Shown here: positions 10,966-61,758 of the stretch, piece after piece
How the letters are laid out: the number at the start of each line of letters is the position of its first letter
Position numbering within the stretch: position 1 is the stretch's first letter
Assembly (NCBI RefSeq): GCF_029227855.1
Contig: NZ_CP074356.1
Length of the DNA: 64,000 bases
Strand: one strand, 5' to 3'
Source of the DNA: Escherichia coli
GTDB taxonomy: Bacteria > Pseudomonadota > Gammaproteobacteria > Enterobacterales > Enterobacteriaceae
Translations under genes and position numbers: made by a program
The notes under the pieces: model-generated
Databases searched by the model: none
Seen by the model: the letters and a program-made list of their open reading frames with translations, nothing else
What the model was told of the DNA's origin: nothing

Positions 10966-11131
10966 CGCACCCTGCCCTGTAATAAAACGGATTGAGAAAA
11001 ATCAGTATAGAAACGAAAAGAGATAAATAATGCGAAGGCGTAAACAAGATTACTGGATGAGTTGCTCTATTGTCCTGAAAGACACCAAAACAAAACGCGT
11101 AAAGCGCCGCATTCGGCAATAAAATAAATAT

Positions 11132-11155
11132 CCTCCGGCATAGCCGGAGGTTTTT
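11132..11155. terminator. GC-rich hairpin plus T-run between ydbC upstream region and the IS element
   Basis: cctccggc-ata-gccggagg followed by ttttt on the plus strand. Confidence 0.45.
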
Positions 11156-11159
11156 CAAA

Positions 11160-11880
11160 TGCGCCTATAAGGCTCTCTTACCAGCCGCGCCCTAACAGGC
11201 GCACACGATCTGACATTTGCATCCAACTTCGTTACTTACGGCCCGTAAACGGGCTGCCCGGATAGGGAATCGATAACTGCTCTCCCATTTTATCCTCTTC
11301 AAGCTGGTGCTTTATGTAATCCTGTATCTTCGCCGTGTTCTTACCCACCGTATCGACGTAGTACCCTCTGCACCAGAACTCCCTGTTCCTGTATTTGAAT
11401 TTCAAATCACCAAACTGCTCGTAAAGCATCAGACTGCTTTTCCCTTTCAGATATCCCATAAAGCCGGATACGCTCATTTTGGGCGGGATCTCCACAAGCA
11501 TATGGATATGATCTGCACAGCATTCAGCTTCCAGAATCCGTACACTTTTCCACTCACACAGCTTTCTCAAAATACTGCCTATTGCTCTACGCTTCTCTCT
11601 GTAGAACACCTGTCTTCGGTATTTTGGCGCAAAAACTATGTGATATTTACAGTTCCATCGGGTGTGCGCTAAGCTCTTTTCGTTCCCCATTGGGACCCCC
11701 TTTTGATTTCTTGTTTGACACTTGCAGTTGCCAGACCGCAAGGTGTTTTAACAAATCAAAAGGGGTTTTAATAACTGGCTTAAAGCTGAAAGCTTTCCGG
11801 AACCCCCAGCCTAGCTGGGGGTTTTCTGTGCACAAAAAACCGCAACCTGTATCAGCGTTGCGGTTTAGGTATCACATGCT
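11160..11880 (-). mobile_element. IS200-like insertion sequence (IS200/IS605 family); boundaries approximate
   Basis: Single Y1/HuH transposase gene flanked by short non-coding arms with stem-loops (cccccagc-ctag-gctggggg at 11805-11823; aaccgcaac...gttgcggtt at 11840-11866); about 0.7 kb, as expected for IS200; ends not mapped. Confidence 0.7.
11232..11690 (-). CDS. tnpA: IS200/IS605-family transposase TnpA (Y1 HuH)
   Basis: MGNEKSLAHTRWNCKYHIVFAPKYRR...HIHMLVEIPP (HuH motif)...; ATG at 11688-11690 preceded by aaaggggg RBS; the 169-aa track ORF has a spurious N-terminal extension. Confidence 0.9.
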   Translation of the reverse strand: MGNEKSLAHTRWNCKYHIVFAPKYRRQVFYREKRRAIGSILRKLCEWKSVRILEAECCADHIHMLVEIPPKMSVSGFMGYLKGKSSLMLYEQFGDLKFKYRNREFWCRGYYVDTVGKNTAKIQDYIKHQLEEDKMGEQLSIPYPGSPFTGRK

Positions 11881-11886
11881 AAAAAT

Positions 11887-11912
11887 TAGAACGTCCAGCA
11901 TCAGGACGTTAC
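11887..11912 (-). terminator. Hairpin plus T-run at the paaY stop codon
   Basis: minus strand reads TAA-cgtcctgatgctggacgtt-ctaattttt. Confidence 0.45.
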
Positions 11913-35913: not shown

Positions 35914-36186
35914 CTTTTCTTCCTCTGATCTTCAAGCCAAACGACACCGCCATAAATAATAGGCAGCACAGAGGGCGGCGTCGAGAGCTATCCTGCGCGT
36001 TGCCCCGCATTTTTACTTTTTTATGGCTATTTTTTTGCCCTCTGTTTGATCAAAACATTCATTACGCTGATGAGGGGGACACAAAAGCGAAAATGCAGAA
36101 GAAAGCCATTTGCTAAAATTGAAGGATTACTACTGGGCGCGCAGCAATTTCGTGCGCCCCTCATTTGCGCAATGTAAGGGTGTCAT

Positions 36187-39100
36187 ATGATTACTATTGA
36201 CGGTAATGGCGCGGTTGCTTCGGTGGCGTTTCGCACCAGTGAAGTTATCGCCATCTACCCTATTACCCCCAGTTCCACGATGGCAGAACAGGCTGATGCC
36301 TGGGCCGGAAACGGCTTGAAGAACGTTTGGGGAGACACACCACGCGTGGTTGAAATGCAGTCGGAAGCGGGTGCTATCGCTACCGTGCATGGCGCTTTGC
36401 AGACGGGTGCCCTTTCAACATCGTTTACGTCATCGCAGGGTTTGCTGCTGATGATCCCGACGCTGTACAAACTGGCAGGCGAACTCACACCGTTTGTCCT
36501 GCATGTAGCGGCACGTACCGTTGCCACACATGCACTCTCTATTTTTGGCGATCATTCCGACGTCATGGCGGTGCGCCAGACGGGTTGCGCGATGTTGTGT
36601 GCGGCAAACGTCCAGGAAGCGCAAGACTTTGCTCTCATTTCGCACATCGCGACGCTGAAAAGCCGCGTGCCATTTATTCATTTCTTTGATGGTTTCCGCA
36701 CGTCCCACGAAATCAATAAAATTGTCCCGTTGGCCGATGACACGATTCTTGAACTGATGCCGCAGGCCGAAATTGATGCTCATCGCGCCCGGGCGCTCAA
36801 CCCGGAACATCCGGTGATCCGCGGTACGTCCGCCAATCCTGACACTTATTTCCAGTCTCGCGAAGCCACCAACCCCTGGTACAACGCGGTCTATGACCAT
36901 GTTGAACAGGCGATGAATGATTTCGCTGCCGCGACAGGTCGTCAGTATCAGCCGTTTGAGTATTACGGGCATCCGCAAGCGGAACGGGTGATTATCCTGA
37001 TGGGCTCTGCCATTGGCACATGTGAAGAAGTGGTTGATGAATTGCTGACCCGTGGCGAAAAAGTCGGCGTGCTGAAAGTTCGCCTGTACCGCCCCTTCTC
37101 CGCCAAACACTTGCTGCAAGCTCTGCCGGGATCCGTGCGCAACGTGGCGGTACTGGACAGAACCAAAGAACCCGGTGCCCAGGCAGAACCGCTCTATCTG
37201 GATGTGATGACTGCACTGGCAGAAGCCTTTAATAATGGCGAGCGCGAAACCCTGCCCCGTGTCATTGGTGGGCGCTATGGTCTTTCATCCAAAGAATTTG
37301 GCCCGGACTGTGTACTGGCGGTATTTGCCGAGCTCAACGCGGCTAAACCGAAAGCGCGCTTTACGGTTGGTATTTACGATGATGTGACCAATCTGTCACT
37401 GCCGTTGCCGGAAAACACCCTGCCAAACTCGGCGAAACTGGAAGCCTTGTTTTATGGCCTTGGTAGTGATGGCAGCGTTTCCGCGACCAAAAACAATATC
37501 AAGATTATCGGTAATTCCACGCCGTGGTACGCACAGGGCTATTTTGTTTACGACTCCAAAAAGGCGGGCGGCCTGACAGTTTCTCACCTTCGCGTGAGCG
37601 AACAGCCGATTCGTTCCGCTTATCTCATTTCCCAGGCTGATTTTGTTGGCTGCCACCAGTTGCAGTTTATCGACAAATATCAGATGGTTGAGCGTTTAAA
37701 ACCTGGCGGCATTTTCCTGCTCAACACGCCGTACAGCGCAGATGAAGTGTGGTCGCGCTTGCCGCAGGAAGTTCAGGCCGTGCTAAACCAGAAAACAGCG
37801 CGCTTCTATGTGATTAACGCAGCGAAAATCGCCCGCGAATGTGGCCTGGCGGCCCGTATTAATACCGTCATGCAGATGGCTTTTTTCCATCTGACGCAAA
37901 TTCTGCCTGGCGATAGCGCCCTCGCAGAATTGCAGGGTGCGATTGCCAAAAGTTACAGTAGCAAAGGTCAGGATCTGGTGGAGCGCAACTGGCAGGCTCT
38001 GGCGCTGGCGCGTGAATCCGTAGAAGAAGTTCCGTTGCAGCCGGTTAATCCGCACAGCGCCAATCGACCGCCTGTGGTTTCCGATGCCGCTCCTGATTTC
38101 GTGAAAACCGTTACCGCGGCGATGCTCGCCGGGCTTGGTGATGCCCTCCCCGTTTCGGCGCTGCCGCCAGACGGCACCTGGCCGATGGGCACCACGCGCT
38201 GGGAAAAACGCAATATCGCCGAAGAGATCCCCATCTGGAAAGAGGAACTCTGTACCCAATGTAACCACTGCGTCGCCGCTTGCCCACACTCAGCTATTCG
38301 CGCAAAAGTGGTACCGCCTGAAGCGATGGAAAACGCCCCTGCCAGCCTGCATTCGCTGGATGTGAAATCGCGTGATATGCGCGGGCAGAAATATGTCTTG
38401 CAGGTGGCACCGGAAGATTGCACCGGCTGTAACCTGTGCGTCGAAGTTTGCCCGGCGAAAGACCGTCAGAATCCAGAGATTAAAGCCATCAATATGATGT
38501 CGCGCCTGGAACATGTCGAAGAAGAAAAAATCAATTACGATTTCTTCCTCAACCTGCCAGAAATCGACCGTAGCAAACTGGAACGTATTGATATTCGTAC
38601 ATCGCAGCTGATTACACCGCTGTTTGAATATTCCGGTGCTTGCTCCGGTTGTGGCGAGACGCCGTATATTAAATTGCTGACTCAGCTCTATGGCGACCGG
38701 ATGTTGATCGCTAACGCCACCGGCTGTTCTTCAATTTATGGCGGTAACCTGCCCTCTACACCGTATACTACCGATGCCAACGGTCGTGGACCGGCATGGG
38801 CGAACTCGCTGTTTGAAGATAACGCCGAATTTGGCCTTGGTTTCCGCCTGACAGTCGATCAACACCGTGTCCGCGTGCTGCGTCTGCTGGATCAATTTGC
38901 CGATAAAATCCCGGCGGAATTACTGACTGCGTTGAAATCAGACGCCACGCCAGAGGTTCGTCGAGAACAGGTCGCAGCTTTACGCCAGCAACTCAACGAT
39001 GTTGCCGAAGCACATGAACTGATGCGTGACGCAGATGCACTGGTGGAAAAATCAATCTGGCTGATTGGTGGCGACGGCTGGGCTTACGATATCGGCTTTG

Positions 39101-39711
39101 GCGGTCTGGATCATGTATTGAGTTTGACGGAAAACGTCAACATTCTGGTGCTGGATACGCAATGCTATTCCAATACCGGTGGTCAGGCGTCAAAAGCGAC
39201 ACCGCTGGGTGCAGTAACTAAGTTTGGCGAGCACGGCAAACGTAAAGCGCGTAAAGATCTTGGCGTCAGTATGATGATGTACGGCCATGTTTATGTGGCG
39301 CAGATTTCTCTCGGCGCGCAGCTGAACCAGACGGTGAAAGCAATTCAGGAAGCGGAAGCGTATCCGGGACCATCGCTGATCATCGCTTATAGCCCGTGTG
39401 AAGAGCATGGTTACGATCTGGCTCTCAGCCACGACCAGATGCGCCAACTCACTGCTACCGGCTTCTGGCCGCTATATCGCTTCGATCCTCGTCGTGCCGA
39501 TGAAGGCAAACTGCCGCTGGCGCTGGATTCACGCCCGCCGTCAGAAGCACTGGAAGAAACGTTACTTCATGAGCAGCGTTTCCGTCGTCTGAATTCGCAG
39601 CAGCCAGAAGTGGCAGAACAGTTATGGAAAGATGCTGCAGCTGATTTGCAAAAACGCTATGACTTCCTGGCACAAATGGCCGGAAAAGCGGAAAAAAGCA
39701 ACACCGATTAA
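36187..39711 (+). CDS. ydbK: Pyruvate:flavodoxin/ferredoxin oxidoreductase
   Basis: 1174-aa ORF with two 4Fe-4S ferredoxin motifs (CTQCNHCVAACP, CTGCNLCVEVCP) and TPP-binding region. Confidence 0.92.
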   Translation: MITIDGNGAVASVAFRTSEVIAIYPITPSSTMAEQADAWAGNGLKNVWGDTPRVVEMQSEAGAIATVHGALQTGALSTSFTSSQGLLLMIPTLYKLAGELTPFVLHVAARTVATHALSIFGDHSDVMAVRQTGCAMLCAANVQEAQDFALISHIATLKSRVPFIHFFDGFRTSHEINKIVPLADDTILELMPQAEIDAHRARALNPEHPVIRGTSANPDTYFQSREATNPWYNAVYDHVEQAMNDFAAATGRQYQPFEYYGHPQAERVIILMGSAIGTCEEVVDELLTRGEKVGVLKVRLYRPFSAKHLLQALPGSVRNVAVLDRTKEPGAQAEPLYLDVMTALAEAFNNGERETLPRVIGGRYGLSSKEFGPDCVLAVFAELNAAKPKARFTVGIYDDVTNLSLPLPENTLPNSAKLEALFYGLGSDGSVSATKNNIKIIGNSTPWYAQGYFVYDSKKAGGLTVSHLRVSEQPIRSAYLISQADFVGCHQLQFIDKYQMVERLKPGGIFLLNTPYSADEVWSRLPQEVQAVLNQKTARFYVINAAKIARECGLAARINTVMQMAFFHLTQILPGDSALAELQGAIAKSYSSKGQDLVERNWQALALARESVEEVPLQPVNPHSANRPPVVSDAAPDFVKTVTAAMLAGLGDALPVSALPPDGTWPMGTTRWEKRNIAEEIPIWKEELCTQCNHCVAACPHSAIRAKVVPPEAMENAPASLHSLDVKSRDMRGQKYVLQVAPEDCTGCNLCVEVCPAKDRQNPEIKAINMMSRLEHVEEEKINYDFFLNLPEIDRSKLERIDIRTSQLITPLFEYSGACSGCGETPYIKLLTQLYGDRMLIANATGCSSIYGGNLPSTPYTTDANGRGPAWANSLFEDNAEFGLGFRLTVDQHRVRVLRLLDQFADKIPAELLTALKSDATPEVRREQVAALRQQLNDVAEAHELMRDADALVEKSIWLIGGDGWAYDIGFGGLDHVLSLTENVNILVLDTQCYSNTGGQASKATPLGAVTKFGEHGKRKARKDLGVSMMMYGHVYVAQISLGAQLNQTVKAIQEAEAYPGPSLIIAYSPCEEHGYDLALSHDQMRQLTATGFWPLYRFDPRRADEGKLPLALDSRPPSEALEETLLHEQRFRRLNSQQPEVAEQLWKDAAADLQKRYDFLAQMAGKAEKSNTD

Positions 39712-39738
39712 ATGCACTGGATAAGGATTATCCAATTC

Positions 39739-39844
39739 TAAAAAAAAGCCCGGACGACTGTTCGGGCTTGTCTCATTATTTGTTGGATAAACAGTAACAA
39801 GGGTCCAACAGAAAATAATCTTTGTGACAATAAAGGCATATAAC
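39739..39844 (-). ncRNA. micC: MicC small regulatory RNA
   Basis: Minus strand reads GTTATATGCCTTTATTGTCACA... ending in hairpin gcccgaacagtcgtccgggc plus U-tract; divergent from ompN; recognised from memory. Confidence 0.65.
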
Positions 39845-40072
39845 CCGCGAAGAATAACGCATCACTATTTAAATGTATAATTTTTATTTTGTATATGTCG
39901 CCAACAATATATTCACCAAACTTATCATCATTTCCGTAGAATTATTTGATTAAGGTTTTACTTAAGGCGTAACAAATGATATTTATCGGCTAACGGAACT
40001 TCTCCTTTAGGATGTTTTCACTCCCCAAAATGGGGATGAAAAGGCAAATAAAATAACTAAAGGATTTATTCA

Positions 40073-41191
40073 ATGAAAAGCAAAGTACTGGCATTTTTAA
40101 TTCCTGCCCTGCTCGCCGCAGGTGCTGCACATGCAGCCGAAGTTTATAATAAAGACGGCAACAAATTAGATCTGTATGGCAAAGTTGATGGCCTACATTA
40201 TTTTTCTGATAATACCAATAGTGATGGTGATCAAACTTATGTGCGTTTTGGTTTTAAGGGTGAAACGCAAATCACGGATCAACTGGTTGGGTATGGCCAG
40301 TGGGAATATAACGTGCAGGCTAATGGCTCTGAAGGTGATAAAGGTGATTCCTGGACTCGTCTTGCTTTTGCCGGTCTGAAATTTGGTGACCTGGGTTCAT
40401 TCGACTATGGTCGTAATTATGGCGTAATGTACGACATCGAAGGCTGGACCGATATGCTACCGGAATTCGGTGGTGACTCTTATACCAAAGCCGATAACTA
40501 TATGACCGGTCGAGCCAATGGCGTAGCAACCTATCGTAATACTGATTTCTTCGGTCTGGTTGATGGTCTGAATTTTGCGTTACAGTACCAGGGTGCGAAT
40601 GAAAACCAGGTCACCCATGAGCAAGAAGGTACCGCAAACGGTGGTGATCGAAACATTAAGAACGCCAATGGCGACGGTCTTGGCATCTCTACTACCTACG
40701 ACTTAGGTATGGGCATGAGTTTTGGTGCCGCCTATACCAGTTCCGATCGCACTAACCAGCAGGCTGAATTCTCTACCGCAAAAGGCGATAAGGCTGATGC
40801 CTGGACTGCCGGGGCAAAATACGATGCTAACAATATCTACCTGGCGACCATGTATTCTGAAACGCGTAACATGACACCTTACGGTGATTCAACAAATACG
40901 ATTGCCAACAAAACCCAGAACTTTGAAGTTACTGCGCAGTATCAGTTCGATTTTGGGCTGCGTCCGGCAGTCTCTTTCCTGATGTCTAAAGGCAAGGATT
41001 TGGTCGGTACCGACGGTGATAAAGATCTGGTTAAATACGCCGATGTTGGCGCGACTTACTATTTCAACAAAAATATGTCCACCTACGTTGACTATAAAAT
41101 CAACCTGTTGGATGAAGATGACAGCTTCTACGCTGCCAATGGCATCTCTACCGATGATATTGTCGCTTTAGGTCTGGTTTATCAGTTCTAA
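40073..41191 (+). CDS. ompN: Outer-membrane general porin OmpN
   Basis: 372-aa ORF with signal peptide, porin beta-barrel signature and C-terminal YQF. Confidence 0.9.
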
Positions 41192-41198
41192 ATCCTCC

Positions 41199-41226
41199 TG
41201 CCCGCTGTTATGGCGGGCTTTTTCTG
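41199..41226 (+). terminator. Rho-independent terminator after ompN
   Basis: cccgc-tgttatg-gcggg followed by cttttttc. Confidence 0.65.
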
Positions 41227-41250
41227 CTTATTCTTCCTCCTTTGATCTAA

Positions 41251-41766
<516 letters not shown>

Positions 41767-41773
41767 CACTAAC

Positions 41774-41799
41774 GCCCGCACATTGCTGCGGGCTTTTTG
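41774..41799 (+). terminator. Rho-independent terminator after uspF
   Basis: gcccgca-cattgc-tgcgggc followed by ttttt. Confidence 0.65.
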
Positions 41800-41941
41800 A
41801 TTCATTTCGCAAATGTGCTGACATTTTCCCCTCTAATCCGTACCATACACGCCACAGTTTTTATATCAGATTTCTTATGCTGGGCGTTCCGGCATGACGC
41901 ATACTCTTCTGATGCCATATAACGAATTGAGTCGCTTTTAA

Positions 41942-42877
41942 ATGTCGCAAAATCAAGAAATTAGTAAGAAAGAACAATACAACCTGAACAAATTACAAAA
42001 ACGTCTGCGTCGTAACGTGGGCGAAGCCATTGCTGACTTCAATATGATTGAAGAAGGCGATCGCATCATGGTTTGCCTCTCCGGGGGTAAAGATAGCTAT
42101 ACCATGCTGGAAATTCTGCGCAATTTGCAGCAAAGCGCGCCAATCAATTTTTCGCTGGTGGCTGTCAACCTCGATCAAAAACAACCGGGCTTCCCGGAAC
42201 ACGTTCTGCCCGAGTATCTTGAAAAGCTGGGCGTTGAGTACAAGATTGTGGAAGAGAACACTTACGGTATCGTGAAAGAGAAGATTCCGGAGGGCAAAAC
42301 CACTTGCTCACTGTGTTCTCGTCTTCGTCGCGGAATTCTTTACCGTACCGCAACGGAACTGGGAGCGACGAAGATCGCGCTGGGTCACCATCGTGACGAT
42401 ATCCTGCAAACGTTGTTCTTAAATATGTTCTACGGCGGCAAGATGAAAGGTATGCCTCCGAAACTGATGAGCGATGATGGCAAACATATCGTGATTCGCC
42501 CGCTGGCCTACTGCCGCGAGAAAGATATTCAGCGCTTTGCCGATGCAAAAGCGTTCCCGATTATTCCGTGCAACCTGTGCGGTTCACAGCCTAACCTGCA
42601 ACGTCAGGTGATTGCTGACATGTTGCGTGACTGGGATAAACGTTATCCGGGGCGTATCGAGACGATGTTCAGCGCGATGCAGAATGTGGTGCCGTCGCAT
42701 CTGTGCGATACCAACCTGTTCGATTTCAAAGGCATTACCCACGGTTCTGAAGTGGTTAACGGGGGTGATCTGGCGTTTGATCGCGAAGAGATCCCTCTAC
42801 AACCGGCGGGTTGGCAGCCTGAAGAAGATGAAAATCAGTTGGATGAGTTACGGCTGAATGTGGTTGAAGTGAAATAA
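41942..42877 (+). CDS. ttcA: tRNA 2-thiocytidine(32) synthetase
   Basis: 311-aa ORF with PP-loop SGGKDS. Confidence 0.9.
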
Positions 42878-44639: not shown

Positions 44640-44761
44640 AAAAAAAAGCCGACTCATCAAAGTCGGCGTCGTACGAATCAATTGTGCTATGCAGTAATTC
44701 AAAAAAGGAAGTAAGACAATATGGAGCGCAACGCCCATCGCTTGACGTTGCATTCACCTGC
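44640..44761 (-). ncRNA. fnrS: FnrS small regulatory RNA
   Basis: Minus strand reads GCAGGTGAATGCAACGTCAAGCGATGGGCG... ending in hairpin gccgactttgatgagtcggc plus T8; recognised from memory. Confidence 0.7.
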
Positions 44762-48138: not shown

Positions 48139-48233
48139 ACCGGCACAGAGGAGACCAGGCCGGATTTAAGACGAGGATGCACTGCTGTGTGTACTGTAGA
48201 GTCTGGCGGATGTCGACAGGCTCTATTTTTTTA
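48139..48233 (+). ncRNA. mcaS: McaS (IsrA) small regulatory RNA
   Basis: ACCGGCACAGAGGAGACCAGGCCGGATTTAAGACG...GTCGACAGGCTCTATTTTTTT between smrA and abgR; recognised from memory. Confidence 0.6.
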
Positions 48234-48240
48234 TGCAGTT

Positions 48241-54169: not shown

Positions 54170-54330
54170 ACATTAAACAATTTGTGCCAGCTTGTTCACA
54201 CTTTTATGTAAAGTTACCCTTAACAACTTAAGGGTTTTCAAATAGATAGACATATATTTACATCTAATATCGGAATTCTCTGCTGTTAAGGTTTGCTTAG
54301 ACTTACTTGCTCCCTAAAAAGATGTTAAAA

Positions 54331-54344
54331 TTGACAAATATCAA
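54331..54344. promoter_or_regulatory. FNR box at the fnr promoter (autoregulation site)
   Basis: ttgacaaatatcaa, near-perfect TTGAT-N4-ATCAA dyad 20 bp upstream of the fnr start codon. Confidence 0.65.
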
Positions 54345-54363
54345 TTACGGCTTGAGCAGACCT

Positions 54364-55116
54364 ATGATCCCGGAAAAGCGAATTATACGGCGCATTCAGT
54401 CTGGCGGTTGTGCTATCCATTGCCAGGATTGCAGCATCAGCCAGCTTTGCATCCCGTTCACACTCAACGAACATGAGCTTGATCAGCTTGATAATATCAT
54501 TGAGCGGAAGAAGCCTATTCAGAAAGGCCAGACGCTGTTTAAGGCTGGTGATGAACTTAAATCGCTTTATGCCATCCGCTCCGGTACGATTAAAAGTTAT
54601 ACCATCACTGAGCAAGGCGACGAGCAAATTACTGGTTTCCATTTAGCAGGCGATCTGGTGGGATTTGACGCTATCGGCAGCGGTCATCACCCGAGCTTCG
54701 CGCAGGCGCTGGAAACCTCGATGGTATGTGAAATCCCGTTCGAAACGCTGGACGATTTGTCTGGTAAAATGCCGAATCTGCGTCAGCAGATGATGCGTCT
54801 GATGAGCGGTGAAATCAAAGGCGATCAGGACATGATCCTGCTGTTGTCGAAGAAAAATGCCGAGGAACGTCTGGCTGCATTCATCTACAACCTGTCCCGT
54901 CGTTTTGCCCAACGCGGCTTCTCCCCTCGTGAATTCCGCCTGACGATGACTCGTGGCGATATCGGTAACTATCTGGGCCTGACGGTAGAAACCATCAGCC
55001 GTCTGCTGGGTCGCTTCCAGAAAAGCGGTATGCTGGCAGTCAAAGGTAAATACATCACCATCGAAAATAACGATGCGCTGGCCCAGCTTGCTGGTCATAC
55101 GCGTAACGTTGCCTGA
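54364..55116 (+). CDS. fnr: Global anaerobic regulator FNR (CRP/FNR family, 4Fe-4S)
   Basis: 250 aa from [29 protein letters not shown] (N-terminal Cys cluster); C-terminal HTH. Confidence 0.95.
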
Positions 55117-55267
55117 TTTTTCCGCATAACTCACTATCCTTCTGTCATATCATTAAATTTTTCTGATTTATTGATCTGACAGAAGGTTCATCACTGTTTC
55201 ATTCACCAGATATGGGTTAATCTTTTAATTACAAACTGCGTTGACAGTTGTTGTAAGGAGACCCTGT

Positions 55268-56218
55268 ATGGCTATGTATCAGAACATGCTCGTTGTTATC
55301 GATCCTAACCAGGACGACCAACCAGCATTGCGGCGAGCTGTTTATTTACATCAACGGATTGGTGGCAAAATTAAAGCCTTTTTGCCGATCTATGACTTCT
55401 CATACGAAATGACCACCCTGCTCTCTCCGGACGAACGTACCGCTATGCGTCAGGGCGTCATCAGCCAGCGTACAGCCTGGATCCACGAGCAGGCAAAATA
55501 TTATCTCAATGCTGGCGTTCCCATTGAAATTAAAGTGGTCTGGCATAACCGTCCTTTCGAAGCCATCATTCAGGAAGTGATCAGCGGCGGGCACGATTTG
55601 GTGCTAAAAATGGCGCACCAACATGACCGTCTGGAAGCGGTGATTTTTACGCCAACGGACTGGCATCTGTTACGCAAATGCCCAAGCCCGGTGTGGATGG
55701 TGAAAGACCAGCCGTGGCCGGAAGGGGGTAAGGCGCTGGTGGCGGTGAATCTCGCCAGTGAAGAGCCGTACCATAATGCGCTCAATGAAAAACTGGTCAA
55801 AGAGACGATCGAACTGGCGGAACAAGTCAACCATACCGAAGTTCATCTGGTTGGCGCTTATCCGGTAACGCCAATTAATATCGCGATTGAACTGCCGGAA
55901 TTTGATCCGAGCGTTTATAACGATGCCATTCGTGGGCAACATTTGCTGGCAATGAAAGCCCTGCGGCAGAAATTCGGCATTAATGAAAACATGACGCACG
56001 TAGAAAAAGGTCTGCCAGAAGAGGTGATTCCTGATTTGGCGGAGCATTTACAGGCGGGGATTGTGGTTCTGGGCACGGTAGGACGCACCGGTATTTCAGC
56101 AGCATTCCTCGGCAACACGGCAGAACAGGTGATTGATCATCTTCGCTGCGACCTGCTGGTCATTAAACCTGACCAGTATCAGACACCCGTTGAACTGGAT
56201 GACGAAGAAGACGATTAA
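55268..56218 (+). CDS. uspE: Tandem-domain universal stress protein E
   Basis: 316 aa from [17 protein letters not shown]. Confidence 0.9.
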
Positions 56219-56267
56219 CGACTCTTCAATAACTGACAAGGCCCGAGTTATCGGGCCTATTTTTTAC

Positions 56268-56525
56268 TTACTGCTCTTCGCCGCCAAGGAAATAAATTCC
56301 CAACGGGATTGCCAGCAACACAGTAAAGACCAGGCTATAAACAAAAATCATTGATGACTGAATCACATACATTGATGTCGTCCACTCAGACAGCGGAATA
56401 TTGTACTGTTCTATCACGCCGCCGATGGTCGCGCGAGTCACAACCGACGCCGCAATAATGAAAACCGCCAACAAACCAAAGAGAAATTTCTTCCCTTTCG
56501 CTGACTTCAGTTTCGCCATAATCAT
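56268..56525 (-). CDS. ynaJ: Small inner-membrane protein YnaJ
   Basis: 85-aa ORF with two predicted TM helices. Confidence 0.8.
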   Translation of the reverse strand: MIMAKLKSAKGKKFLFGLLAVFIIAASVVTRATIGGVIEQYNIPLSEWTTSMYVIQSSMIFVYSLVFTVLLAIPLGIYFLGGEEQ

Positions 56526-56768
56526 GATGTAATCCTTGTGCAGACAAATTTCTTGTTACCTAAACGCAACAATACCATGACATTTCACCGTTGTCTGCTC
56601 TGAAAACCTCACCTCTTAGCTGGATTTACAATCAACGCATTGATTAGTTAGCTAATGTTGCTACTTCCTTCCCTGACTATTGATGATCTGAATGAATTGT
56701 CGCGGTAAAATAGCCCCGCCAGGGGTTTCCGGCATGACGACAATTATCTGGAGGAGCCTGATAAAACA

Positions 56769-57800
56769 ATGATCGCTGAACTGTTTACAAATAATGCGCT
56801 TAATCTGGTCATTATTTTCGGTAGCTGCGCAGCATTGATTCTGATGAGCTTTTGGTTTCGCCGCGGAAATCGTAAAAGAAAAGGTTTTTTATTCCATGCG
56901 GTGCAATTTTTAATCTACACCATAATTATCAGTGCTGTTGGTAGCATCATTAATTATGTTATAGAAAACTATAAACTCAAATTTATCACCCCAGGCGTTA
57001 TCGATTTTATCTGTACGTCCCTGATTGCGGTTATTCTGACGATTAAGCTATTTCTGCTGATTAATCAGTTTGAAAAACAGCAGATTAAAAAAGGTCGCGA
57101 TATCACCAGTGCGCGGATTATGTCGCGTATCATCAAAATCACCATTATTGTGGTGCTTGTTCTGCTTTATGGCGAACATTTCGGCATGAGCCTTTCTGGC
57201 TTGTTGACCTTTGGTGGTATTGGTGGTCTGGCTGTCGGTATGGCCGGTAAAGATATTCTGAGTAACTTCTTTTCCGGGATTATGCTCTATTTCGACCGTC
57301 CTTTTAGTATTGGCGACTGGATCCGTTCACCGGACAGAAATATCGAAGGTACAGTATCGGAAATTGGCTGGCGAATTACCAAGATTACGACTTTTGATAA
57401 TCGTCCGTTGTACGTACCGAACTCGCTGTTTTCGTCAATCAGCGTAGAAAACCCAGGACGAATGACCAACCGGCGCATTACCACGACCATTGGTTTACGT
57501 TATGAGGATGCGGCAAAAGTGGGCGTTATTGTCGAAGCCGTACGTGAGATGCTGAAAAATCACCCGGCCATTGACCAGCGACAAACCTTACTGGTTTATT
57601 TCAACCAGTTTGCTGACTCCTCATTGAATATTATGGTTTATTGCTTTACCAAAACCACGGTATGGGCTGAATGGCTTGCTGCACAGCAAGACGTTTATTT
57701 GAAGATTATCGATATTGTACAGTCACACGGCGCGGACTTTGCCTTCCCCAGCCAGACGCTGTATATGGATAACATTACACCGCCGGACCAGGGTCGCTAA
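56769..57800 (+). CDS. ynaI: MscS-family low-conductance mechanosensitive channel
   Basis: 343-aa ORF with N-terminal TM helices and MscS-like core. Confidence 0.88.
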
Positions 57801-57850: not shown

Positions 57851-59464
57851 TCAATGCTTCACAATATACATAGTCCGACTGTACGCCACATCTTCCGGGT
57901 TATTAATGGGATAACCTTTCAGCCACGGCTTGATTAATCGTCCATTGGTATATTGATAAATTGGTGCAATCGGTGCTTGCTCCATGAGGATTTTTTCTGC
58001 CGCATTGTAATCGGCATTACGCGCTTTAACGGTATTTTCCGTTGATGCCTGGGCCAGTACTTTGTCGTATGCCGGATTGTTAAAGCGTGAAATATTCCCT
58101 GAATGCGTTGACGTTAACAACGTAAGGAAAGTGGAGGGTTCATTATAATCCCCTACCCATGAGGCGCGGATAACATCAAAATTGCCGGTGTTACGGCTAT
58201 CGATATAGGTTTTCCATTCCTGATTCTGCAATTTAACATCTACGCCAAGGTTCTTTTTCCACATCGATGCTACAGCAATCGCAATTTTTTGATGGTTTTC
58301 TGAAGTGTTATACAAAAGCGTCAGCTTCAGCGGTTTTTGCGGACCATAACCAGCTGCGCTCAACAAAGTTTTTGCCTGCGCATTCAGTTCTTCCTGACTC
58401 ATTTGTTCAAACGGCGAAGGCTCCGGCGTAAAACCGGCAGTAACATCTGGTGTAAAATGCCACGCTGGCTTTTCCCCCGTCCCCAACACTTTTTCGGTCA
58501 TCAGGCGGCGATCTATCGTCATACTTAATGCCAGGCGAACACGCTGATCGGCCGTCGGCCCTTTTTGCGTGTTAAACGCATAATAATAGGTCCCGAGCTG
58601 CGGCGGCGTATAAACCTGCCCCGGAATATCCTTCAACAGCTTCTGATACATATTTTTCGGGAAGGATTCGGTGATATCAATATCCCCCGCGAGATAACGC
58701 TTAGTGGCTGCGGATTCCTGATTAATTGGCAGGAAGGTCACTTTTTGCAGCACCGTTTTGGCGTTATCCCAATAATGGGTATTCGGTACCACGACCAGTT
58801 TTTCATTGACTACGCGCTCTTTAAGAACATAAGCGCCATTACCGATCAGTTTTCCGGGTTTCGTCCACTCTTTACTACTTTCTACGTTGGCTTTTTGCAC
58901 CGGGAAGAAGGCAAAGTTAGCGGTTAAATTCACAAACCACGGCAACGGTTTATCAAGCTGGATTTTCAAAGTATGGGCATCAACTGCGGTGACGCCAAGC
59001 TGGTCAGGCGTGGCTTTACCATCAATAATCGCCTGTGCGTTGTTGATTCCCGCCAGCGCGGCAAACCATGCAAATGGCGACAATGTTTTTGGGTCCACCA
59101 GACGTTGCCAGCTGTAGACAAAATCTTGCGCCGTTACCGGTGTGCCATCCGCCCATTTTGCGTTATCGCGCAAGGTAAAAGTCCAGATACGGTTGTCATT
59201 ACTTTTCCACTGAGTCGCAACGCCGGGGACAATCTCCCCTTTCTCGTTCTGATTCACCAGTCCTTCAAACAGATCGCGAATGACCTGAATCTCCGGCAGG
59301 CCCACGGCTTTAGCGGGATCCAGCGACGCTGGCTCATCTTTAATGTGGCGCACCAGCTCCTGCTTCTCTGCCAGTACTGTGCCGCTCGGAACTTCAGCAG
59401 CATACGAAAGAGAAATGCTGCTGACCAACAGCGCACAACACGTGACTGAAACAGAGTGCTTCAT
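57851..59464 (-). CDS. mppA: Periplasmic murein tripeptide-binding protein
   Basis: 537 aa from MKHSVSVTCCALLVSSISLSYA (signal peptide); OppA-like solute-binding protein family 5. Confidence 0.9.
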   Translation of the reverse strand: MKHSVSVTCCALLVSSISLSYAAEVPSGTVLAEKQELVRHIKDEPASLDPAKAVGLPEIQVIRDLFEGLVNQNEKGEIVPGVATQWKSNDNRIWTFTLRDNAKWADGTPVTAQDFVYSWQRLVDPKTLSPFAWFAALAGINNAQAIIDGKATPDQLGVTAVDAHTLKIQLDKPLPWFVNLTANFAFFPVQKANVESSKEWTKPGKLIGNGAYVLKERVVNEKLVVVPNTHYWDNAKTVLQKVTFLPINQESAATKRYLAGDIDITESFPKNMYQKLLKDIPGQVYTPPQLGTYYYAFNTQKGPTADQRVRLALSMTIDRRLMTEKVLGTGEKPAWHFTPDVTAGFTPEPSPFEQMSQEELNAQAKTLLSAAGYGPQKPLKLTLLYNTSENHQKIAIAVASMWKKNLGVDVKLQNQEWKTYIDSRNTGNFDVIRASWVGDYNEPSTFLTLLTSTHSGNISRFNNPAYDKVLAQASTENTVKARNADYNAAEKILMEQAPIAPIYQYTNGRLIKPWLKGYPINNPEDVAYSRTMYIVKH

Positions 59465-59521
59465 AAGTTTCCCTCTAACCGACATTAAAATTGATGCGTA
59501 ATTATTTGTTTCGCCTTAAAG

Positions 59522-60837: not shown

Positions 60838-61758
60838 ATGATGAATAATAAAGTCAGCTTCACTAACAGCAATAATCCAACCATCTCTTTGTCTGCAGTG
60901 ATCTATTTCCCTCCAAAATTTGATGAAACCCGTCAGTATCCGGCAATTGTGGTATCTCACCCAGGTGGGGGCGTTAAAGAGCAAACGGCCGGAACCTATG
61001 CCGAAAAACTGGCGGAAAAGGGATTTGTCACTATTGCTTATGACGCATCTTATCAAGGTGAAAGCGGCGGCGAGCCGCGTCAGTTAGAAAACCCATACAT
61101 TCGTACTGAAGACGTCAGTGCCGTGATTGATTACCTGACAACGCTTTCTTATGTCGACAATACCCGAATTGGTGCGATGGGAATTTGTGCCGGTGCAGGA
61201 TATACAGCCAATGCTGCAATTCAGGATCGCCGCATCAAGGCCATCGGTACTGTTAGTGCGGTCAATATTGGTTCGATGTTCCGTAATGGTTGGGAAAACA
61301 ATGTGAAATCTATTGATGCCCTACCATACGTTGACGCGGGTTCAAACGCCCGAACCAGCGATATTAGTAGCGGAGAATACGCCACTATGCCACTGGCACC
61401 AATGAAGGAGTCCGATGCGCCGAACGAAGAACTGCGTCAGGCCTGGGAGTATTACCACACCCCTCGCGCGCAGTATCCAACAGCACCGGGTTACGCTACT
61501 TTGCGCAGCCTTAACCAGATTATTACCTATGATGCTTACCATATGGCGGAAGTGTACCTGACTCAGCCGATACAGATTGTGGCGGGCAGCCAGGCAGGGA
61601 GCAAATGGATGAGTGACGACCTGTACGATCGAGCATCAAGCCAGGATAAACGCTATCACATTGTTGAAGGCGCAAACCATATGGATCTTTATGACGGCAA
61701 AGTCTATGTGGCTGAAGCAATTTCAGTATTAGCTCCGTTCTTTGAGGAAACTCTGTAA
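60838..61758 (+). CDS. ycjY: Alpha/beta-hydrolase (dienelactone hydrolase-like) protein
   Basis: ORF 60826-61758 (310 aa); start at MMNNKVSFTNS chosen to give about 306 aa, uncertain by a few codons. Confidence 0.85.
   Translation: MMNNKVSFTNSNNPTISLSAVIYFPPKFDETRQYPAIVVSHPGGGVKEQTAGTYAEKLAEKGFVTIAYDASYQGESGGEPRQLENPYIRTEDVSAVIDYLTTLSYVDNTRIGAMGICAGAGYTANAAIQDRRIKAIGTVSAVNIGSMFRNGWENNVKSIDALPYVDAGSNARTSDISSGEYATMPLAPMKESDAPNEELRQAWEYYHTPRAQYPTAPGYATLRSLNQIITYDAYHMAEVYLTQPIQIVAGSQAGSKWMSDDLYDRASSQDKRYHIVEGANHMDLYDGKVYVAEAISVLAPFFEETL

Follow-up and report, generated by a model that had tools for sequence, protein, structure and literature searches.

The region between ynaJ and ynaI in the 64-kb stretch of Escherichia coli DNA analysed here (the window) is empty of the IS5 element that K-12 carries at the same place. 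We regard it as almost certain that this is the uninterrupted, most likely ancestral form of the divergent ynaJ–ynaI region, in a different E. coli lineage that never had the K-12 insertion. The evidence comes from the exact insertion point and target duplication of the K-12 copy, from the frequencies of the two states in the population and from the divergence of the surrounding sequence from K-12. The window was also found to differ from K-12 at three other sites of mobile or variable DNA, and candidate control elements were identified on both sides of the point at which the K-12 element lies.

The ynaJ–ynaI spacer and the IS5 target site

Two divergent genes bound the spacer with their 5' ends. 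On one side, ynaJ (56268–56525, minus strand) is an 85-aa open reading frame (ORF) for a small membrane protein of the Pfam family DUF2534 (PF10749, E = 4.5e-41); on the other, ynaI (56769–57800, plus strand) encodes a 343-aa low-conductance mechanosensitive channel of the MscS family in which the first, second and third MS_channel domains of Pfam were recognized. Both genes have the lengths of their K-12 counterparts, ynaJ corresponding to b1332, and both ynaJ and ynaI are annotated in RefSeq genomes under matches to the 801-bp interval that covers this region. Divergent transcription of the pair has also been stated in the literature (PMC11677980). From start codon to start codon the spacer measures exactly 243 bp (56526–56768), and with a G+C content of 0.424, against 0.497 for the whole window, it is relatively AT-rich. 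The wider neighbourhood comprises fnr (54307–55116, plus strand), uspE (55241–56218, plus strand) and, beyond ynaI, mppA (57851–59485, minus strand). A G+C-rich hairpin terminator, with a T-run after the hairpin on the plus strand, lies between the convergent uspE and ynaJ genes (56239–56258); this bidirectional ynaJ–uspE terminator has been used as a model in single-molecule studies of RNA polymerase collision (bioRxiv 10.1101/2022.10.23.513370).

An earlier note on this DNA had described a 243-bp spacer free of any transposase-like ORF, and this was confirmed. The longest ORF touching the spacer has 53 aa, none of the touching ORFs is transposase-like, and the two that lie wholly inside have 30–31 aa. 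A blastn search of the whole 64-kb window with IS5F of K-12 as query (E ≤ 1e-3) returned no IS5 homology.

The same note had put an IS5 copy between ynaI and ynaJ in K-12, and the RefSeq record of MG1655 indeed places IS5F/insH4 (b1331) at 1396044–1397238, between ynaI (b1330) and ynaJ (b1332). The absence of an element makes no statistical claim; what counts is how the window compares with K-12. That comparison is exact, and alignment of the interval found the K-12 IS5 in place. The K-12 ynaI–ynaJ interval (NC_000913.3, 1395923–1397364) is 1442 bp long, including the 1195-bp IS5. Once the IS5 and 4 bp, that is one CTAA, are taken out, what remains differs from the window spacer, read in reverse complement, at 1 of 243 positions, and equal length is reached only by taking out exactly 4 bp besides the element. 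K-12 and the window thus share the flanking genes, their orientation and 242 of 243 spacer positions, whereas the 1195-bp IS5 and the CTAA duplication are present in K-12 and missing from the window.

At the junction itself, K-12 reads TTAGCTAA, then the 1195 bp of IS5, then CTAACTAATC; its left side ends in AGCTAA, CTAA being the target that was duplicated. In reverse complement, the window has AGCTAACTAATC, where the target occurs once, at 56648–56651, written TTAG on the plus strand and CTAA on the K-12 strand; it is this tetranucleotide that flanks IS5F on both sides in K-12. In a megablast comparison, K-12 blocks 1391000–1396043 and 1397239–1400999 corresponded to window positions 61691–56648 and 56651–52891, overlapping at 56648–56651 with nothing between them, and K-12 derivatives break at positions 381–384 of the 801-bp interval, which is the same place. 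The window sequence is therefore that of an empty site: it is continuous, has one copy of the 4-bp target and is free of IS5 terminal repeats and transposase remnants.

YTAR is the established target preference of IS5, and a pattern count found five such sites in the spacer, three of them adjacent (TTAG TTAG CTAA, 56644–56655), the middle one being that used by the K-12 IS5. CTAA and CTAG have both been named as IS5 insertion sites (PMC11677980). Among the laboratory strains of K-12, an IS5 entered the middle tetramer and duplicated it, and the remaining stubs of the spacer measure 121 bp on the ynaI side and 126 bp on the ynaJ side.

Genome assemblies are well known to fail at IS elements, and a repeated IS5 copy might have been collapsed or skipped here. 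The usual trace of a collapse is a broken contig or a truncated IS end, however, whereas this junction is seamless with a single target copy; the same seamless junction recurs in thousands of independent complete genomes, and the 64 kb hold not one fragment of IS5. The probability of an artefact of this kind appears negligible to us, and assembly collapse was rejected on the grounds of the seamless single-target junction common to these thousands of genomes.

Frequency of the empty and the interrupted site

The distribution of the two states was examined among 5426 complete RefSeq genomes of E. coli, with the 801-bp interval 56268–57068 as query. The interval was present in 5422 of the 5426 genomes and lay in one piece in 5055 of these 5422 (~93%), at 95–100% identity. 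Any single place with a query coverage of at least 80% was counted as one piece, and pieces up to 900 bp apart were joined, so that short insertions would escape notice. All 28 of the full-coverage matches listed consisted of a single piece. Most natural isolates, for example strains 042, EDL933 and EC958, share the uninterrupted spacer at 98.8–99.5% identity.

By comparison, the K-12-type IS5 junction on the ynaI side (240-bp probe) was found whole in 353 genomes and that on the ynaJ side (246-bp probe) in 346. The 60 matches listed for the ynaJ-side junction were almost all recognisable K-12 laboratory strains, including MG1655 and its derivatives, C600, J53, DH5alpha, DH1, NCM3722, RR1, HST04 and BLK9/16; WCHEC035053S1G0, also among the matches listed, carries this junction and is not recognisable as K-12 by name. 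The four carriers of the ynaI-side junction among the matches listed were ER1709, NEB10-beta, HB101 and THB42-F5. The last of these is labelled as coming from a dog; it is K-12-like, with a genome of 4.60 Mb and 11 matching places, and carries the K-12-type junction. These strain identities cover ~64 of the ~350 junction-bearing records and were assigned by name. About 14 of the 5422 genomes fell outside both groups, lacking an unbroken interval as well as the K-12-type junction on the ynaI side; at least one of them, a C600 assembly, keeps the ynaJ half only. The slight difference between the two junction counts (353 and 346) would fit one-sided IS5-mediated deletions in some K-12 stocks.

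The species as a rule has the empty site; K-12, with its insertion, is exceptional, and the IS5 copy serves as a mark of the laboratory strains descended from K-12. Strains are already known to be polymorphic here, and no new biology is involved. The empty state is most likely also the ancestral one. Since 5055 of 5422 genomes have the empty spacer, its presence excludes K-12 yet singles out no particular lineage.

Lineage of the window and its other mobile-element sites

Positions 1–61691 of the window were compared with K-12 and are colinear with it save for four differences, namely IS5F, the Rac prophage, the ynbG–ydbA segment and an IS200 copy. Identity to K-12 is ~98.3% overall and 98.2–98.7% per block. 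The block ompN–micC–ydbK (35971–41991) stands apart at 94.1% (up to 5.9% divergence), against 98.2–98.7% in the adjoining blocks, and its low identity may reflect recombination or a diversifying porin sequence. The porin of this block is named ompC by RefSeq in other strains. Three small RNA genes scored above their Rfam gathering thresholds at their K-12 positions: FnrS (44644–44761, minus strand), McaS (48139–48234, plus strand) and MicC (39732–39847, minus strand).

The best match to the window was JNEC-KY178, a Japanese clinical isolate, at 100.0% identity over 22 kb and also over the IS200 locus. Its ynaJ–ynaI interval (NZ_AP045174.1, 2753619–2754419) has the same uninterrupted spacer and is 100% identical to that of the window. 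Strain 042 is ~99.2% identical to the window, and SMS-3-5 ~99.0% identical at the ttcA junction; we take these two strains to belong to phylogroups D and F. The assignment of the window to a non-K-12 lineage, which the earlier note had proposed, is borne out by this contrast between flanks at 98.2–98.7% identity to K-12 and at 100.0% to JNEC-KY178. None of four features of the K-12 lineage was found in the window, be it IS5F/insH4, Rac at ttcA, ydbA::IS2D::IS30C or near-identical flanks. JNEC-KY178 is the closest strain to the lineage of the window, followed by strains like 042 and SMS-3-5, and the IS5 insertion almost certainly never took place in this lineage.

That note had supported its lineage claim with the absence of Rac and ydbA and the presence of IS200, each of which was found as described. 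K-12 positions 1411942–1434958, which make up nearly all of the annotated Rac prophage (1411899–1434958), had no match in the window. In their place we found an unoccupied attachment site with a single attB overlap at 41949–41991, seen as a 43-bp overlap of K-12 blocks 1401001–1411941 and 1434959–1441000 and situated at the 5' end of the ttcA ORF (41942–42877, plus strand). Such an empty ttcA–uspF junction is common, occurring in 2487 of 5413 genomes. The 8.9-kb K-12 segment 1465063–1474004, which contains ynbG and ydbA::IS2D::IS30C, was likewise unmatched, the window having 13 bp (11895–11907) instead.

The IS200 copy (~11129–11833, minus strand) corresponds to a 705-bp window-specific segment at the junction of paaY and pdxI (ydbC), the only stretch of window 1–61691 without a K-12 counterpart apart from the 13-bp remnant. 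Its size of ~0.7 kb, an ORF for a Y1 (HUH) transposase (11232–11741, minus strand; Pfam Y1_Tnp, E = 5e-38) and the structured 5' leader RNA STnc490 (11700–11823, minus strand; Rfam, 146 bits) are those of the IS200/IS605 family, and the annotation of JNEC-KY178 at this locus is IS200C tnpA. The configuration with IS200 in the place of ydbA was found in 66 genomes (at least 80% of a 3-kb query).

JNEC-KY178 differs from the window in having a prophage at ttcA with Rac-type genes (intR, recE, recT, racR, trkG and others). At this locus the window matches JNEC-KY178 only from 41949 onward, and the offset of the coordinates suggests a prophage of ~53 kb. Present in JNEC-KY178 and absent from the window, it was gained or lost recently inside a single lineage. 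The window thus belongs to a strain closely related to JNEC-KY178 and was not taken from the JNEC-KY178 assembly itself. JNEC-KY178 also has 24 places that match the IS200-containing query. The earlier view that this lineage has a cleaner complement of mobile elements therefore holds for the IS5, Rac and ydbA sites of the window and fails for the lineage as a whole, because its closest relative has both this prophage, of an estimated ~53 kb, and these 24 IS200-query places.

The window sequence is also the exact product expected from removing IS5 together with one target copy, which is what would be seen if the element had once been present and then lost, whether it excised precisely or was engineered out, as in reduced-genome derivatives of K-12 freed of IS elements. 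Deletion mutants of this kind exist: BW25113 has 11 copies of IS5, and strains have been built from it in which the copy at ynaI/ynaJ is deleted (PMC11677980). Against such a loss, the flanks are 1.3–1.8% off K-12, and up to 5.9% off in ompN–ydbK, yet match a clinical isolate at 100% identity; 93% of complete genomes share this empty sequence; and Rac and ydbA::IS2::IS30 are missing too, while the window has an IS200 that is absent from K-12. We consider loss of a former IS5 extremely improbable, and the divergence from K-12 leaves practically no room for an engineered, IS-free K-12 origin.

Candidate control elements in the spacer

As a native divergent control region that never received the IS5, the spacer should hold the core promoters and leaders of both genes. 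A strict sigma-70 consensus scan of 56200–56900 found no promoter. The same scan gave two terminator-like sites, one of them the uspE/ynaJ terminator and the other at 56734–56717 on the minus strand, within chance expectation. A relaxed scan gave one promoter candidate per gene, each matching at only 8 of 12 positions. For ynaI, the candidate −10 element TAAAAT (5 of 6 positions; 56706–56711, plus strand) lies 58 bp upstream of the ATG and is preceded by a poor −35 element, ATGATC, at 56683–56688. For ynaJ, the candidate reads CAGACA, 17 nt, TG-n-TATTGT, with an extended −10 element (56569–56597, minus strand), and lies 44 bp upstream of the ATG.

Relative to the IS5 target, each candidate falls on the side of its own gene. 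Judged from these predicted positions, both core promoters would lie inside the stubs that K-12 retains. Both genes are expressed in K-12: ynaI mRNA has been measured by qRT-PCR (Edwards et al. 2012; PMC3508906), in a study that makes no mention of IS5, and ynaJ has been described as highly expressed (bioRxiv 10.1101/2024.03.27.586983). The placement of each candidate between the IS5 target and its own gene would explain this expression, which, occurring as it does despite the IS5, fits core promoters within the retained stubs.

A small RNA, a small protein or an operator common to the two genes, AATCAACGCATTGATT for instance, could in addition be hidden in the spacer. In K-12 the IS5 would cut such an element off from one of the two genes, and ynaI/ynaJ regulation would then differ from that in other E. 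coli; overall we think this unlikely. One candidate is AATCAACGCATTGATT itself, a palindrome (AATCAA-CGCA-TTGATT, 6-bp arms; 56630–56645), which was read from the sequence and abuts the IS5 target. By a rough estimate ~0.06 such palindromes would be expected by chance per 243 bp, and it is a possible operator, although only suggestively so. Two perfect 8-nt inverted repeats were also noted within 300 bp, slightly above a rough estimate of chance. One, AATTGTCG/CGACAATT (56695–56745, plus strand), encloses a hairpin, GCCCC..GGGGU, in what is presumably the ynaI leader; the other, GCAGACAA/TTGTCTGC (56540–56598, minus strand), spans the presumed ynaJ promoter and leader. Read on the minus strand, the first of these structures was the one scored as terminator-like, at a level that chance would give. 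These repeats are, like the palindrome, suggestive only.

RNA folding gave a similarly modest signal. The presumed ynaJ leader folds with z = −2.2 (6 of 200 shuffles fold equally well), whereas the presumed ynaI leader (−23.6 kcal/mol, z = −1.6) is not significant and folds of the whole spacer on the two strands are unremarkable (z = −0.2 and −0.7); these scores are not enough to claim a structured RNA. An Rfam scan of 55800–57400 at E ≤ 1 returned zero matches, and at gathering thresholds the whole window yielded FnrS, McaS, MicC and the IS200 leader STnc490 only, none of them in the spacer. The ORFs inside the spacer, of at most 31 aa, bear no obvious sign of being genes, and the expression of both ynaI and ynaJ in K-12 with the IS5 in place also speaks against a hidden element that K-12 has disrupted.

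IS5 insertions in intergenic control regions are known to alter the expression of neighbouring genes, as at bglGFB, flhDC, fucAO and glpFK. The K-12 ynaI/ynaJ copy shares with these insertions a YTAR target and AT-rich DNA and is situated in a divergent promoter region, whereas the window represents the uninserted state. For K-12, the consequence might be that IS5 splits upstream control elements shared by the ynaJ and ynaI promoters, such as the palindrome AATCAACGCATTGATT, which we consider improbable; a literature search found no report of the ynaI/ynaJ copy affecting the expression of either gene. If it were true, all published data on the expression and physiology of YnaI and YnaJ, which come from K-12, would describe a promoter region that has been rewired and is not typical of the species.

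The finding has little importance beyond bookkeeping, and the empty spacer shows only that the DNA is not that of K-12. The locus is nevertheless a convenient marker separating K-12-derived DNA from that of other E. coli, because the IS5 junction occurs in ~350 of 5422 genomes and nearly all of those inspected are K-12 laboratory strains. The practical effect of the K-12 copy is the ynaJ–uspE–fnr deletion in some MG1655 and W3110 stocks: in W3110 stocks of the CGSC it arose by recombination between the ynaI/ynaJ IS5 and a second IS5 next to ogt, and fnr deletions have been noted in MG1655 stocks too (PMC2072959). No IS5 copy is available for such recombination in the 64 kb of the window. For the control region of ynaI and ynaJ, it is the K-12 form that is the atypical one.
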